This document shows positions 6,916 through 29,208 of a DNA stretch of 64,000 nucleotides, piece after piece; the stretch's first letter is position 1, and every line of letters begins with the position of its first letter. The translations under genes and the position numbers were made by a program. The stretch comes from Escherichia coli (GTDB lineage: Bacteria > Pseudomonadota > Gammaproteobacteria > Enterobacterales > Enterobacteriaceae), in NCBI RefSeq assembly GCF_030013205.1, contig NZ_CP122648.1; one strand, 5' to 3'. The notes under the pieces are model-generated. The model worked only from the letters and a program-made list of their open reading frames with translations. It made no database searches and had not been told where the DNA came from.

Positions 6916-7647
6916 TCAGGCTGTTACCAAAGAAGCCGCAACCTGGCGCTCATCAGAAATAATGTGCGTGACCTCATCCAGATGCCCGATGCGGGCTTCC
7001 CCTGAACGATTAAATTTACTTTTATCAATCAATAACAACGATTGCGCGGCGCGTTTTAATAGCATTGATTTGTAATCAGCGTTGATGGCATTGGAGTCCC
7101 ACAGTGCGCCGCTGCTATCGATCCCTTCACAAGAAAAAATAAACAGATCGATTTCCAGCGATTTAAGTTGGGAAATCAGCGAGGGATTGACGTAACAACC
7201 ATATTTGCGCTCAAGTGTGCCGCCGGAACTGATCAGTTGAATGCGTTCACGTTTACCGAGTTCATGGCAAATCGGATGGCTATTGGTGAAGACCTGGATG
7301 TTGATGTCAGGCAACTGGCGTGCCAGATACCAGCAGGTTGAACTGGCGTCTAAGGCTATTACCATCCCTTCTTCAATCCACGCGAGCGCCTCGCGCGCGA
7401 TATCTGCTTTATGCGCATAATGGCTTTTCAGCCGGATGTGAAAGGGATCGCCACTGTCTTGATTTTGACGGTGGATATATTTAGCGCGCCCATGATTGCG
7501 CAGAATTTTACCCTGCGTCTGTAATTCATTGAGATCGCGACGAATGGTTTCTTTACTGACCTTTAGCTGTTCAGAGAGAGCTTCCGTGGTCAGGCTGGTA
7601 TGGTTCAGCAGCAGGTCGACTATCGCTTGCTGGCGTGCCGCTTTCAT
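6916..7647 (-). CDS. fucR: DeoR-family L-fucose operon activator
   Basis: Start set at MKAARQQ (ATG 7645-7647); ORF-track start at 7656 is an upstream in-frame GTG. Confidence 0.9.
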   Translation of the reverse strand: MKAARQQAIVDLLLNHTSLTTEALSEQLKVSKETIRRDLNELQTQGKILRNHGRAKYIHRQNQDSGDPFHIRLKSHYAHKADIAREALAWIEEGMVIALDASSTCWYLARQLPDINIQVFTNSHPICHELGKRERIQLISSGGTLERKYGCYVNPSLISQLKSLEIDLFIFSCEGIDSSGALWDSNAINADYKSMLLKRAAQSLLLIDKSKFNRSGEARIGHLDEVTHIISDERQVAASLVTA

Positions 7648-22489: not shown

Positions 22490-22857
22490 GTCGACAGGGA
22501 GTCAGACAACGAAGTGAACATCAGGATGATGACACTTCTGAAGGACACACCAGGATGGTGTTTCAGGGAAAGGCTTCTGGATGAAGCGAAGAGGATGACG
22601 CAGGACGCGTTAAAGGACACCTCCAGGATGGAGAATGAGAACCGGTCAGGATGATTCGGTGGGTCAGGAAGGCCAGGGACACTTCAGGATGAAGTATCAC
22701 ATCGGGGTGGTGTGAGCAGGAAGCAATAGTTCAGGATGAACGATTGGCCGCAAGGCCAGAGGAAAAGTTGTCAAGGATGAGCAGGGAGCAACAAAAGTAG
22801 CTGGAATGCTGCGAAACGAACCGGGAGCACTGTGAATACAGTGCTCCCTTTTTTTAT
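22490..22857 (+). ncRNA. csrB: CsrB, CsrA-sequestering small RNA
   Basis: About 370 nt with numerous CAGGATG / AGGA repeats; ends with hairpin gggagcactgtgaatacagtgctccc plus T-run; 5' end approximate. Confidence 0.9.
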
Positions 22858-22900
22858 TCCTGCTATTCTTCGCGGCAGTTTTTCTTATTGAGGTTGCTTT

Positions 22901-23230
22901 ATGACCACTCATGACCGCGTTCGTCTCCAGTTGCAGGCGCTTGAAGCGTTACTGCGTGAACATCAGCACTGGCGAAACGATGAACCCCAGCCGCATCAAT
23001 TTAATAGTACCCAACCGTTCTTTATGGACACCATGGAACCACTGGAGTGGTTGCAGTGGGTGCTGATCCCGCGAATGCACGATTTGTTAGAAAACAACCA
23101 GCCGTTACCGGGCGCTTTTGCCGTTGCTCCCTATTATGAAATGGCGCTGGCGACGGACCACCCGCAACGCGCGCTTATTCTGGCTGAGCTGGAAAAACTG
23201 GATGCTCTTTTTGCGGATGATGCGAGCTAA
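22901..23230 (+). CDS. yqcC: DUF446 protein YqcC
   Basis: 109-aa ORF; stop overlaps truC start (TAATG). Confidence 0.85.
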   Translation: MTTHDRVRLQLQALEALLREHQHWRNDEPQPHQFNSTQPFFMDTMEPLEWLQWVLIPRMHDLLENNQPLPGAFAVAPYYEMALATDHPQRALILAELEKLDALFADDAS

Positions 23231-24012
23231 TGCTGGAAATACTCTATCAGGATGAATGGCTGGTTGCGGTAAATAAACCCTCCGGCTGGCTGGTTCACCG
23301 CAGCTGGCTGGATCGCGACGAGAAAGTAGTGGTCATGCAAACCGTGCGTGACCAGATAGGCCAGCATGTGTTTACTGCTCATCGTCTGGACCGACCAACT
23401 TCTGGTGTGTTGTTGATGGGATTATCCAGCGAGGCCGGACGGCTGCTGGCACAACAGTTTGAACAGCACCAAATCCAGAAACGTTACCATGCGATTGTGC
23501 GCGGCTGGTTGATGGAAGAAGCAGTTCTGGATTATCCACTGGTGGAAGAACTGGACAAAATCGCTGATAAATTTGCCCGCGAAGATAAAGGCCCACAGCC
23601 AGCAGTGACGCATTATCGCGGTCTGGCGACCGTAGAAATGCCGGTAGCGACCGGACGTTACCCGACCACGCGCTACGGCCTGGTGGAACTGGAGCCGAAA
23701 ACCGGACGCAAGCACCAGCTCCGTCGCCATCTTGCCCATTTGCGCCACCCGATTATTGGCGACAGCAAACATGGTGATTTACGCCAGAATCGCAGCGGTG
23801 CTGAACATTTTGGCCTTCAGCGGTTAATGTTGCATGCCAGTCAGTTGTCATTGACGCATCCTTTTACTGGCGAGCCGCTGACTATTCACGCGGGCCTGGA
23901 CGACACCTGGATGCAGGCGTTATCACAATTTGGCTGGCGCGGTCTGCTTCCTGAAAATGAAAGGGTTGAGTTCAGTGCGCCATCGGGTCAGGATGGAGAG
24001 ATAAGTTCCTAA
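23230..24012 (+). CDS. truC: tRNA pseudouridine(65) synthase
   Basis: RluA-family pseudouridine synthase with HRLD catalytic motif. Confidence 0.9.
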
Positions 24013-24029: not shown

Positions 24030-24479
24030 ATGGCGGAAATTGGTATTTTTGTCGGCACCATGTACGGAAATTCGCTGTTAGTGGCGGAAGAAGCAGAAGC
24101 AATTCTGACCGCACAGGGCCACAAAGCAACGGTATTTGAAGATCCTGAATTAAGCGACTGGCTGCCCTATCAGGATAAGTATGTTCTGGTGGTTACGTCC
24201 ACGACCGGGCAGGGCGACCTTCCTGATAGCATTGTGCCGCTCTTTCAGGGAATCAAAGATACCCTGGGCTTCCAGCCGAATCTGCGTTATGGCGTGATTG
24301 CGCTCGGCGACAGTAGTTATGTGAATTTCTGCAATGGCGGCAAACAGTTCGATGCCTTGTTGCAGGAACAGAGCGCTCAGCGAGTGGGAGAAATGCTGTT
24401 GATTGACGCCAGTGAGAACCCGGAACCGGAAACGGAATCAAATCCGTGGGTCGAACATTGGGGCACGCTGTTGTCCTGA
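24030..24479 (+). CDS. yqcA: flavodoxin-like protein YqcA
   Basis: 149-aa ORF with flavodoxin signature (SxTGxxE-like, [10 protein letters not shown]). Confidence 0.85.
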
Positions 24480-24531
24480 TACGTTCAGCGAGCGGTAAAT
24501 GCCGTTTTAGCGGTGCTGAATCGAATCTTTT

Positions 24532-24588
24532 CAGGCAAATGCCAGTAAAAACTGCTTCATAGCGCGGATTTTTACTGGCGTTTGCCTG
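24532..24588. other. long inverted repeat (about 20-bp arms) downstream of yqcA
   Basis: caggcaaatgccagtaaaaa-N18-tttttactggcgtttgcctg, one mismatch; no T-run after it. Confidence 0.4.
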
Positions 24589-24913
24589 GAGTCAAGCGAT
24601 CCATTTCATACTCTTCTTTATTTCTTCGTTTTAACCCTTCCTTTCTTGTTCTTGTTTTCATTTCCGTGAAGTGGATTCCACCGTCCAGGGCTAATGCCAA
24701 AATCGGGCCTCATTGAACGCATTAATGTTGTGTTGTTGCACGGTGAGCCACTATGGCGCGCTTTTTATACTGCTATTGCCAGATATAAACACGCGCCGTA
24801 TTCGGCGAACGACCTATAAAAACGGCAAAAAACACCCTACGTCACCTCTGATTTCCTGGCGATGTCGCAGTCCAGAGTGAGCGTGGCTAACGCGAATTTT
24901 CAGGAGTGCAACA

Positions 24914-26266
24914 ATGAGTTCTTTAAGTCAGGCTGCGAGCAGTGTGGAAAAACGCACAAATGCTCGTTACTGGATAGTGGTGATGTTGTTTATCGTCACA
25001 TCCTTCAACTACGGCGACCGCGCTACGCTTTCTATTGCCGGTTCGGAAATGGCCAAAGATATCGGCCTTGATCCCGTGGGAATGGGCTATGTGTTCTCTG
25101 CTTTCTCATGGGCTTATGTTATCGGACAGATCCCTGGTGGTTGGTTGCTGGATCGTTTTGGTTCAAAACGCGTCTACTTCTGGTCGATCTTTATCTGGTC
25201 GATGTTTACCTTGCTGCAAGGCTTTGTCGATATTTTTAGTGGATTCGGCATTATCGTTGCCCTGTTTACGCTGCGCTTCCTGGTCGGGCTTGCTGAAGCG
25301 CCATCTTTCCCCGGCAACAGTCGCATTGTTGCGGCCTGGTTTCCGGCGCAGGAAAGGGGAACGGCGGTGTCGATTTTTAACTCCGCTCAATACTTCGCAA
25401 CGGTGATCTTCGCGCCGATTATGGGCTGGCTGACGCATGAAGTGGGCTGGTCACACGTCTTCTTCTTTATGGGCGGTCTGGGCATTGTCATCAGCTTTAT
25501 CTGGTTGAAAGTCATCCACGAGCCAAATCAACATCCGGGTGTAAATCAGAAAGAGCTGGAGTACATCGCCGCGGGTGGCGCGCTGATCAATATGGATCAG
25601 CAAAATACCAAAGTTAAAGTGCCGTTCAGCGTGAAGTGGGGGCAGATCAAACAGCTGCTCGGGTCACGGATGATGATCGGCGTTTATATCGGTCAGTACT
25701 GTATCAACGCCCTGACTTACTTTTTCATTACCTGGTTTCCGGTTTATCTGGTGCAGGCGCGTGGGATGTCGATTCTGAAAGCGGGCTTTGTGGCTTCCGT
25801 TCCGGCGGTTTGCGGTTTTATCGGCGGTGTGCTGGGTGGGATTATTTCCGACTGGCTGATGCGCCGCACGGGATCGCTGAACATTGCGCGTAAAACACCG
25901 ATCGTAATGGGCATGTTGCTGTCGATGGTGATGGTGTTCTGCAACTACGTCAACGTTGAGTGGATGATCATCGGCTTTATGGCGCTGGCCTTCTTCGGTA
26001 AGGGCATCGGGGCGCTGGGTTGGGCAGTAATGGCAGATACCGCGCCAAAAGAGATCAGCGGTCTTTCCGGTGGCCTGTTCAACATGTTCGGTAACATTTC
26101 TGGCATCGTCACGCCAATCGCAATTGGTTATATCGTTGGCACGACTGGCTCGTTTAATGGGGCGCTGATTTATGTTGGTGTTCATGCCTTAATCGCGGTA
26201 CTGAGCTACCTGGTGCTGGTGGGCGATATCAAGCGTATCGAGCTGAAACCTGTCGCGGGGCAATAA
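24914..26266 (+). CDS. gudP: glucarate/galactarate MFS transporter
   Basis: 450-aa polytopic MFS ORF. Confidence 0.9.
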
Positions 26267-28971: not shown

Positions 28972-29017
28972 CAGTAATCTCAAACCGGCTCTTTCAGGAG
29001 CCGGTTTGAGATTACTG
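28972..29017. terminator. long stem-loop after gudD between convergent gudD and barA
   Basis: cagtaatctcaaaccggctc tttcag gagccggtttgagattactg, near-perfect inverted repeat. Confidence 0.45.
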
Positions 29018-29029
29018 ACGAAGTGGCTT

Positions 29030-29145
29030 ACGGGGACGGTTTTCCCCTCGCCCTTTCAAGGAGAGGACCGGGGGGAGGGTAATCATTCGCACTTGCGTTG
29101 GCCTGTTCCCCTCACCCTAACCCTCTCCCCGGAGGGGCGAGGGGA
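29030..29145. repeat. GC-rich imperfect palindromic intergenic element (BoxC-like)
   Basis: cccctcgccc...ggagaggaccggggggagggt / ccctcaccctaaccctctccccggaggggcgagggg; the two arms are reverse-complementary; generates the spurious ORF 29006..29362. Confidence 0.35.
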
Positions 29146-29208
29146 CTGTCTGTGCTGTTCCCAGCATTGGCATTGGACGGAACCTATTTTGACTCGACAA
29201 GACGTCCG

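Follow-up and report, generated by a model that had tools for sequence, protein, structure and literature searches.

A single-copy stem-loop between yqcA and gudP in Escherichia coli: conserved boxes and a terminator-like core perfected in one lineage

Rho-dependent transcripts of the class described by Dar and Sorek (2018; PMC6061677) end just past stable stem-loops that lack a U-tract and are followed by a stretch richer in C than in G, and the stem-loops confer protection from PNPase and RNase II. The hairpin analyzed here, which lies between yqcA and gudP in Escherichia coli, shares many of these features. Specifically, it is stable (−40 to −46 kcal/mol), sits just past a gene without an intrinsic terminator, has no U-tract behind its outer stem and no A-tract before it, and is followed by a C-over-G tract (GC skew −0.68); read-through into the next gene is sensitive to bicyclomycin (BCM) as measured in 800-nt windows. 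It differs from the described class in its stem of 20–27 bp, which is two to three times longer, and in arms that carry conserved boxes older than such a role.

A second point of comparison is the glucarate/galactarate regulon, in which CdaR regulates the gud and gar genes according to a statement in PMC8170033 that cites Monterrubio 2000. The inverted boxes between garP and garD and the boxes at about −42 of the cdaR, garP and gudP promoters, all of them putative CdaR operators, share a GCAWWTGC core with the hairpin arms. The garP–garD pair is inverted, with 31–32 bp between 12-bp cores, as is the gud pair, and the −10 elements of the regulon promoters lie 24 nt from the box, an arrangement that recurs in the gud module of other genera. 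Unlike the regulon boxes, the E. coli arms read GGCA..TGCC, the leftward −10 is decayed, and the pair lies ~200 bp 5′ of the gudP core promoter.

The center of the hairpin calls to mind bidirectional intrinsic terminators, which combine an A-tract, a GC hairpin and a T-tract. Exactly this shape is taken by the inner part in Citrobacter, Superficieibacter, Raoultella and others, as in AAAACCCTTTCatacGAAAGGGTTTT from C. koseri. The E. coli version has an inner GC stem of only 4 bp, its T-tract is taken up into the long stem, and the outer stem has no U-rich tail. Template-switched quasi-palindromes (the Ripley model; the Lovett laboratory; Lavi et al. 2018) likewise display clustered substitutions in one arm, each of which raises complementarity, followed by high conservation of the perfect repeat; template switching is a mutational origin rather than a function, and is not directly observable in extant sequences. 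REP/BIME elements are, like this hairpin, intergenic palindromes at a gene 3′ end with a capacity to stabilize upstream mRNA, but the hairpin is single-copy, differs in sequence and has longer arms. With respect to these systems, the hairpin is an unannotated representative of an ordinary class of intergenic element, in which regulatory boxes and a terminator-like core have been perfected in one lineage, and it does not overturn current understanding.

The window, by which we mean the whole 64-kb stretch of E. coli chromosome that was analyzed, contains csrB, yqcC, truC, yqcA, a 434-bp spacer, gudP and gudX in this order (Table 1). Its + strand is the K-12 minus strand, so that a K-12 coordinate is 2947014 minus the window coordinate. 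The spacer (24480–24913) has the length that the sequence-only reading gave it, and the annotation of NC_000913 (K-12) places no feature there.

Table 1. Positions of features around the yqcA–gudP spacer, in window coordinates
Feature	Position	Strand	Basis or remark
csrB	22499–22858		Rfam search
truC	23230–24012		ORF list/annotation
yqcA (flavodoxin-like) CDS	24030–24479	+	ORF list; carries the name yqcA in NC_000913 and in further E. coli records
First, weaker stem-loop after the yqcA stop	24478–24527	+	CGTTCAGC pairs with GCTGAATCG, then UUUU; ViennaRNA −17.6 kcal/mol
Conserved block GCTGAATCGAATCT	24515–24528	+	Alignments; ACTGAATCG(A/T)GTTAGC in other genera
5′ arm	24532–24551	+	Box GGCAAATGCC (24534–24543), then A-tract AGTAAAAA
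Loop, 17 nt, with 4-bp apical mini-stem CUGC/GCGG	24552–24568	+	Fold
3′ arm	24569–24588	+	T-tract TTTTTACT, then box GGCGTTTGCC (24577–24586)
Highly conserved block GTCAAGCGATCCATTTCATACTC (GTCAAGCGACCTGTTTCACACTC in other genera)	24590–24612	+	Invariant TCAAG, GA, TTCA.A.T
Pyrimidine-rich C-over-G tract just past the hairpin, candidate Rho-loading (rut-like) region	24600–24660	+	GC skew
Proximal conserved blocks TTTCATTTCCGTGAAGT..TTCCAC and GGGCTAATGCCAAAA	24655–24701	+	24-genus alignment
Putative core gudP promoter	24724–24771	+	AATGTTGTGTTGTTGCACGGTGAG with invariant TGCACGGTGAG, 24 nt, −10 TATACT (24766–24771)
Bicyclomycin-sensitive (Rho) termination region, peak coordinate	24896	K-12 2922118, minus strand	Just 5′ of the gudP start codon; PMC7815308
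gudP (glucarate/galactarate transporter), first gene of gudPXD	24914–26266	+	ORF list, annotation

The hairpin is formed by the arms CAGGCAAATGCCAGTAAAAA (24532–24551) and TTTTTACTGGCGTTTGCCTG (24569–24588), which make 20 contiguous pairs, 19 of them Watson–Crick. The twentieth, T24540·G24580, corresponds to a G·U wobble if the RNA has the + strand sequence and to an A·C mismatch if it has that of the − strand. The sequence-only reading, which had described a perfect stem of about 20 bp with an 18-nt loop some 50 bp past yqcA and no T-run behind it, was right about the repeat; its word "perfect" is slightly overstated because of T24540·G24580. The loop is 17 nt rather than 18, and 52 nt separate the hairpin from the stop (24479). 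As stated, the stem has no T-run behind it; the bases that follow are GAGTCAAGCG. That the hairpin is not a canonical terminator likewise held up, as it has no U-tract and a promoter/terminator scan called no terminator at the site.

In the minimum free energy fold the stem lengthens to 23 + 4 pairs. On the + strand, 101 nt fold at −46.3 kcal/mol (z = −6.6), a stability equaled by 0 of 200 shuffles; the − strand fold is weaker (−38.3 kcal/mol) because the wobble turns into A·C. Searching the 64-kb window with the arm sequence at ≤3 mismatches returned only the two arm sites, and 100 shuffles of the window returned 0 matches at that threshold. The hairpin is real and not a product of chance, and it folds far better than shuffled sequence.

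Of 5426 complete E. coli genomes, 5425 carry the spacer with its hairpin, each at a single place. Since there is exactly one place per genome, the two-place match pattern seen in one genome search is the palindrome matching itself. A phage search gave no hairpin match, and in a plasmid collection there was no true-plasmid match, the three matches being chromosomes of 4.8–4.9 Mb filed as plasmids. Rfam searches of both strands at permissive thresholds (E up to 10) returned only chance-level matches in the E. coli spacer, and no family at the corresponding region of five other genera. These observations bear on the proposal that the hairpin is a REP/BIME repeat, the end of a miniature transposable element or IS, or a small-RNA or riboswitch gene of a described family. 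Its palindromic shape by itself invites that proposal, and REP-like elements do occupy the same spacer in C. koseri and the C. freundii group. Nonetheless, we find it scarcely credible for an element that E. coli has in one copy, that phages and true plasmids lack, that matches no Rfam family on either strand in five genera, and that is orthologous in position across genera. The genome-wide search for copies thus identified no repeat family, in agreement with the earlier judgment that the hairpin is not a REP unit, and the suggestion of a degenerate mobile-element end fails on the same grounds. Both a repeat or mobile end (no copies beyond the locus in the window, the 5426 E. coli genomes, plasmids or phages) and a known RNA family (no Rfam match in E. 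coli or the five other genera) were rejected.

Variation of the hairpin region within E. coli is slight. A 63-nt core is 100% identical in 4847 (89%) of the 5425 genomes. Among the variant alleles sampled, C24563T falls in the loop and C24542T in the 5′ arm, where it gives G·U on the + strand; a rare allele in strain ZF8-1 combines loop changes with C24575T (again G·U on the + strand) and G24588C, which breaks the closing pair.

Outside E. coli the comparison was made on 80 loci anchored on yqcA, one per species. The GTCAAGCGACCTGTTTCACACTC block comes after the hairpin position in 28 of them, at 308–334 nt from the gudP ATG but at 43–184 nt from the yqcA stop, and from the near-constant distance to gudP and the variable distance to yqcA we conclude that the module belongs to the gudP upstream region. 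Judged from these alignments, the E. coli hairpin is the Escherichia form of a module of ~110 bp located ~310–335 bp 5′ of the gudP start in many Enterobacteriaceae. The C. freundii complex, Enterobacter and others keep gudP and its core promoter and have no module. The two proximal blocks of Table 1, of which GGGCTAATGCCAAAA is box-like at 24689–24698, are retained even in genera that lack the hairpin module. As a minor observation, the GTCAAGCGATCCATTTCATACTC block bears a loose likeness to a CRP half-site or a −10 element.

In 26 aligned module sequences the order of blocks is ACTGAATCG(A/T)GTTAGC, TTC.GGCAAATGCC, GTAAAA, a variable center, usually TTTTTAC, then GGCATTTTCA and finally the GTCAAG... 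block. RNAalifold found no consensus structure for these 26 sequences. When the E. coli structure was imposed on the alignment, 70% of cells were paired as against 67.5% in shuffles, and only one pair clearly covaried, GCC[A]G/C[T]GGC (AU 7, CG 7, UA 3). An exceptional fold is confined to Escherichia (z about −5 to −9) and the closest relatives of that genus; in some Citrobacter the fold stands out moderately, and in Kosakonia, Phytobacter, Silvania and others it is unremarkable. An RNA structure conserved across genera was therefore rejected, there being no RNAalifold consensus and an E. coli structure barely above controls. Comparison of orthologous regions, which the sequence-only reading had proposed as a check, accordingly found a position that is conserved across genera and a long stem that is not; in the aligned sequences, the boxes appear conserved and their pairing does not.

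Between the boxes lie an A-tract, a short GC hairpin and a T-tract. The fold of this segment is significant in 14 of the 26 sequences, with a stem sequence that differs by genus, and in several other genera the inner hairpin is followed by T5–6, as in an intrinsic terminator. Kosakonia and Phytobacter have A-rich sequence on either side and possibly no hairpin. The inter-box segment thus looks like a bidirectional intrinsic terminator in several genera.

Each arm carries a self-palindromic box, GGCAWWTGCC. Because this box is its own near-reverse-complement, two copies pair in any orientation, and with A-tract and T-tract complementary as well, a single long hairpin can form from the entire stretch. 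The reverse complement of the 5′ arm box, GGCATTTGCCT, has 2 mismatches to the cdaR/garP box GGCATTTGCAC, and the E. coli 3′ arm box has 3. Of the 26 sequences, 19 have a 5′ box that departs from GGCATTTGCAC at no more than 2 positions, and only 9 have such a 3′ box; the S. arizonae box reads GGCATATGCAC. The TGCAC half-site, which never varies among the gudP, garP, garD and cdaR boxes, is missing from both arms in E. coli. The cdaR promoter shows GGCATTTGCAC and GGCATTTGCACAATG (TTGCAC, 24 nt, TATGCT), the garP promoter shows AGCATTTGCAC and AGCATTTGCACAATG (24 nt, TATACT), and the gudP promoter, conserved over 24 genera, has TTGCAC in the invariant TGCACGGTGAG, again 24 nt from TATACT. The garP–garD spacer holds the inverted pair TGTGCAAATGCT-N32-AGCATATGCACA with 12-nt arms, beside which the gud hairpin can be written as AGGCAAATGCCA-N31-TGGCGTTTGCCT. 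BLAST of the gud against the gar intergenic regions recovered only short shared words, which became meaningful only once the cdaR promoter was added. To our knowledge, CdaR binding sites have not been defined so far.

The spacing of the two boxes is close to constant: 43 bp in 12 sequences, 42 in 8, 41 in 1, and 33 in Salmonella and one poorly aligned sequence. The sequence between them is unrelated from genus to genus. Spacing that is kept while the intervening sequence differs suggests a helical-phase constraint on DNA rather than a free RNA loop, and the gud pair, at 43 bp start to start, shares with the garP–garD pair an inverted arrangement at a distance of about four helical turns.

A −10-like hexamer stands on the − strand at exactly 24 nt from the 5′ box in 13 of 20 non-Escherichia sequences, against a background of 1.2% per position, in seven spellings (TACACT, TAGGAT, TAGAAT, CATAAT, TAAAAT, TATGAT and TAAACT); two further sequences have one at 25 nt. 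The counterpart of GCTGAATCGAATCT in other genera sits in this 24-nt spacer, between the 5′ box and the hexamer. Downstream of this putative promoter, non-Escherichia sequences have an invariant GTCG and a conserved block that extends up to the yqcA terminator hairpin. Escherichia lacks the block, and E. coli has no TATNCT-type −10 at 24 nt from the 5′ box, with TAAAAC at 23 nt instead. We infer a leftward, activator-dependent promoter at the 5′ box in non-Escherichia genera.

These comparisons argue well, and in our judgment convincingly enough to call it likely, for an origin of the arms as the paired boxes of an old control module. Ancestrally the boxes were probably sites for the activator of the glucarate/galactarate regulon, for which CdaR is the candidate. 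Activator binding at the E. coli arms today appears doubtful, because TGCAC is absent and box matches are at chance level across the window: at ≤2 mismatches from GGCATTTGCAC, 30 were found against 31 expected. An exact GGCATTTGCAC at 43830 lies inside a coding region and was set aside as a chance match. The idea of a protein-binding structure, raised in the sequence-only reading, thus finds, as far as the arms are concerned, the strongest comparative backing, in conserved self-palindromic boxes, fixed spacing and likeness to CdaR-regulon boxes, and is weakened for E. coli by arms without TGCAC.

A reading confined to DNA would make the arms working paired operators for CdaR or another dimeric regulator, a distal activating or looping site for gudPXD of which the hairpin is a by-product. 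It would account for boxes that are conserved while pairing is not, for a spacing held at 41–43 or 33 bp around unrelated sequence, whose inter-box hairpin reaches significance in no more than 14 of 26 cases, for the same inverted pair in the garP–garD control region, for the box and layout common to the cdaR, garP and gudP promoters, and for the clustering of four GGCAWWTGCC-like boxes within 205 bp of the yqcA–gudP spacer. A box-like sequence match, GGTAAATGCC at 24494–24503, lies inside the stem-loop at 24478–24527. Several facts fit the DNA-only reading poorly, however. Besides the missing TGCAC half-site, the substitutions that distinguish the Escherichia 3′ box bring it no nearer to the regulon box (3 mismatches), the element lies ~190–245 bp 5′ of the inferred gudP transcription start, and the C. 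freundii complex and Enterobacter dispense with the module while keeping gudP and its core promoter; a bias toward G·U on one strand, described below, would also go unexplained. We therefore regard working operators in present-day E. coli as possible and on the unlikely side, and rank them second among the readings of present function.

In terms of how the long stem arose, the 3′ box is the informative part. It reads GGCGTTTGCCTGGAG in Escherichia and GGCGTTTTCATAGGG in the nearest relatives and outgroups, a difference of four clustered changes, three of which create pairs with the 5′ arm and turn an interrupted stem into a perfect one. Written out, the outgroup TTTTCATAGGG became the Escherichia TTTGCCTGGAG, so that clustered changes in one arm raised complementarity, which is the signature of a template switch. 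The mechanism by which quasi-palindromes undergo template switching has been described (PMC7202029), and Lavi et al. proposed it as the source of over-represented and over-conserved perfect inverted repeats in E. coli, where arms of at least 13 bp are enriched ~150-fold (PMC5941160). Across Escherichia lineages the loop is constant in length and widely variable in sequence; 10 of its 17 positions differ between E. coli and the Escherichia lineage L004, which share identical arms, and the L004 loop contains GCAAATG, identical to part of the 5′ arm. A divergent Escherichia sequence, L002, has two A·C mismatches in the stem. The stem thus looks to have been made perfect in Escherichia by template switching, and the best explanation of the hairpin as a whole would be a single-copy, chromosomal, lineage-specific perfected quasi-palindrome built from older intergenic pieces.

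Such an origin raises the prospect that the hairpin has no present function and is a neutral relic of an old control region, its arms homogenized by template switching and fixed by drift. Clustered substitutions that raise complementarity are what this would predict, template switching is a documented route to perfected quasi-palindromes and hence to over-conserved inverted repeats in E. coli (PMC7202029, PMC5941160), the GCAAATG of the L004 loop hints at templated copying, and other genera have lost the module repeatedly. A relic would not be expected, however, to keep a 63-nt core identical in 89% of 5425 genomes, to have E. coli stem variants that stay paired as G·U (the G24588C closing pair of the rare allele excepted), or to hold its arms identical where Escherichia clades have diverged at 10 of 17 loop positions. 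Moreover, the perfecting coincides with the loss of the yqcA terminator hairpin. Most other genera have a GC-rich hairpin, CCCTCC...GGAGGG, after the yqcA stop; in Escherichia it is absent, and only the weaker stem-loop at 24478–24527 is present. On balance, we consider a functionless relic improbable. More generally, perfect stems can arise and persist through templated mutation without function.

The reading that we rank first, and hold tentatively, is that the element serves E. coli today as an RNA 3′ stem-loop and insulator. Ancestrally, the boxes would have been paired activator sites, probably for CdaR, with the 5′ box driving a leftward promoter as it may in other genera. In Escherichia, the 3′ box would have been overwritten to complement the 5′ box, in a setting where the yqcA terminator hairpin is missing and the leftward −10 beside the 5′ box has decayed. 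Transcription of truC–yqcA in present-day E. coli would then enter the element directly, and a very stable, U-less stem-loop would form in + strand RNA. This stem-loop could act as a 3′-end barrier against 3′–5′ exonucleases for the truC–yqcA mRNA, while Rho may load on the C-rich, G-poor tract just downstream and terminate before gudP, which would insulate the gud control region from read-through.

Two features of the sequence are consistent with an RNA-level role on the + strand. First, in all Escherichia sequences the + strand fold exceeds that of the − strand in stability by 4–12 kcal/mol, and on the + strand the stem variants C24542T and C24575T pair as G·U, as does the fixed T24540·G24580; this G·U asymmetry rests on about three events, and the two A·C mismatches of L002 run against it. 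Second, nowhere in the spacer is the excess of C over G as strong as just past the hairpin (GC skew −0.68 at 24600–24659), and 24589–24668 contains 20 C against 9 G. With respect to Rho, Adams et al. 2021 (PMC7815308, supplementary file 2) list a BCM-sensitive termination region at K-12 2922118 on the minus strand, with upstream/downstream reads of 114/23 without BCM and 112/90 with BCM; because the windows are 800 nt wide, these counts leave the termination site unplaced relative to the hairpin. Part of the BCM signal before gudP could stem from the leader of the gudP promoter itself. The Term-seq tables of the same study (PMC7815308) contain no RNA 3′ end in the yqcA–gudP spacer, which low expression may explain, and neither the transcriptome supplements examined nor the literature gave a mapped 3′ end, transcription start or cleavage/RNase III site at the hairpin. 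An RNA processing structure, the other idea of the sequence-only reading, is plausible for E. coli itself.

Instead of shielding the mRNA, a read-through duplex of 23–27 bp might also expose it to cleavage by RNase III. RNase III substrates need roughly two helical turns of duplex, a length that this nearly perfect stem reaches with 20 contiguous pairs, or 23 + 4 in the minimum free energy fold. Cleavage would destabilize the truC–yqcA mRNA, in the manner of sib-like retroregulation, or sever the downstream RNA. The text of PMC6212723 describes RNase III sites as enriched in intergenic and untranslated regions; that text names neither yqcA nor gudP, and a destabilizing role would leave the conserved boxes unexplained. 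We accordingly think it quite unlikely that RNase III processing is what the hairpin is for.

Beyond the 3′ stem-loop and insulator that we favor, the spacer may hide a two-way module, in which a leftward promoter, inducible by glucarate, is under the control of paired CdaR-type boxes. Such a promoter would make a short non-coding or antisense RNA over the GUCGUUAUUUUGCUUACUGGC block in Salmonella, Citrobacter and others; in Escherichia the promoter would have decayed, leaving the module as a long RNA stem that couples truC–yqcA read-through, Rho and possibly RNase III to the glucarate operon. We offer this combination, its parts taken jointly, as a speculation with little probability.

Other candidates for the spacer were tried and either rejected or found no support. 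Small proteins from the − strand (ORFs of 42 and 34 aa) are contradicted by conserved blocks whose reading frames disagree between Citrobacter and E. coli and which are separated by indels. A − strand sigma-70 promoter called by the scan, TTGACT-16-AAAAAT, has a −10 that is not conserved in other genera. The GCTGAATCGAATCT block (24515–24528) fits the degenerate Cra/FruR consensus, which is unspecific, with 22 matches in the window against 13.6 expected. A Cra/FruR site at the CTGAATCG block is at most a lead, and a literature search found no paper linking Cra to gudP. Finally, a CRP site at GTCAAGCGA..TTCACA was dropped, there being one good half-site only and no literature support.

If the favored reading is right, an old protein-binding inverted repeat was turned by templated mutation into a stable RNA 3′ stem-loop after a terminator was lost. 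The comparison would also yield, for the CdaR glucarate/galactarate regulon, a candidate operator motif with a candidate promoter layout, namely GCAWWTGCAC, 24 nt and TATNCT, and a candidate leftward transcript beside gudP in Salmonella and Citrobacter. Use of glucarate by these two genera matters for growth in the inflamed gut. As for the length of the hairpin, which the sequence-only reading had called unusual, it is real and beyond chance, but the same window offers a comparable case: a second perfect, U-less hairpin lies just past gudD (28972–29017), with 20-bp repeat arms and a fold that reaches 21 pairs.

With respect to transcriptional control of the glucarate operon, a single arrangement, rGCATTTGCAC(AATG) followed after 24 nt by TATNCT, was found to be common to three promoters of the CdaR regulon, those of cdaR, garP and gudP. 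Specifically, the spacer between garP and garD contains two rGCATTTGCAC-type boxes, which are inverted and lie 32 nt apart. No published binding site was found in the literature on CdaR, and the shared layout, as a sequence pattern, is a candidate for the CdaR operator together with its promoter. Downstream of this layout, the inferred gudP 5′ leader (~135 nt, window ~24778–24913) contains inverted repeats that are kept across genera, for example TCATTCTGATTACCCTAC...TTCAGAATGA, and a published Rho-sensitive coordinate falls at 24896, just 5′ of the gudP ribosome-binding site. Taken together, these two features suggest Rho-dependent attenuation within the leader.

Coordinates of the promoter layouts, the minus-strand signal and the second hairpin
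Feature	Sequence	Coordinates	Strand	Remarks
cdaR promoter with shared layout	L096	2398–2445		
garP/garD region with shared layout	L082	~6995–7091		
gudP promoter with shared layout	window	24724–24771		
Minus-strand hexamer region, example locus	L022	2951–3040	-	
Second perfect hairpin	window	28972–29017		starts 2 nt past gudD stop; arms CAGTAATCTCAAACCGGCTC / GAGCCGGTTTGAGATTACTG

Farther upstream, the best-conserved part of the distal module is the block GTCAAGCGAcctgTTTCACACTC (24590–24612), which was present in 28 of the 80 yqcA-anchored loci with TCAAG, GA and TTCA.A.T as its invariant positions, and which is retained without the hairpin in Leclercia (L041), Kosakonia (L068) and Franconibacter (L080). 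The block resembles half of a CRP site, and its CA.A.T is similar to a -10 element. In E. coli 2014C-4135 (L084/L088), a copy of the IS66-family element ISEc23 carrying tnpA, tnpB and a transposase lies directly 3′ of GTCAAG, with its junction at 24596/24597, and thereby splits the gudP promoter from the hairpin. A similar truncated match (H20) suggests that other E. coli strains also carry insertions in this region.

Both hairpin arms are identical in E. coli and two other Escherichia lineages (L004 and L005), whereas the loop (24552–24568), although constant in length, differs between E. coli and these lineages at 10 of 17 positions; the GCAAATG of the 5′ arm also occurs in the L004 loop. 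In other genera, a -10-like hexamer is located on the minus strand 24 nt from the 5′ box (L022, L024, L007, L008, L023, L046, L050 and L062, among others). An invariant GTCG follows ~8 nt beyond it, and from there conserved sequence of the GTCGTTATTTTGCTTACTGGC type reaches as far as the yqcA terminator hairpin. Judged from these motifs, Salmonella, Citrobacter, Silvania, Phytobacter and Superficieibacter could produce a leftward transcript that is unannotated; the arrangement is missing from Escherichia.

Window 24515–24528, with orthologues of the form ACTGAATCG(A/T)GTTAGC, fits the Cra/FruR consensus, RSTGAAWCSNTHHW, at 13 of 14 positions. This fit is not significant because the consensus is overly degenerate, with 22 matches across the window against 13.6 expected.

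E. albertii (L016), along with L011, L014, L015, L019 and others, has no gudP within the 2.5-kb downstream flank of yqcA; the yqcA gene of E. albertii is immediately followed by a terminator hairpin of its own, ATGCCCTCTGAtaaTCAGAGGGCAT. Three PLSDB "plasmid" records of 4.8–4.9 Mb (H51–H53) are evidently E. coli chromosomes.

The second perfect hairpin, on the gudD side, has 20-bp repeat arms separated by 6 nt, folds into 21 pairs with a 4-nt loop (-37.4 kcal/mol) and has no T-run on its 3′ side; in appearance, this is a further 3′ stem-loop of the U-less kind. Beyond it, at ~29030–29150, lies repeat-like, GC-rich sequence.
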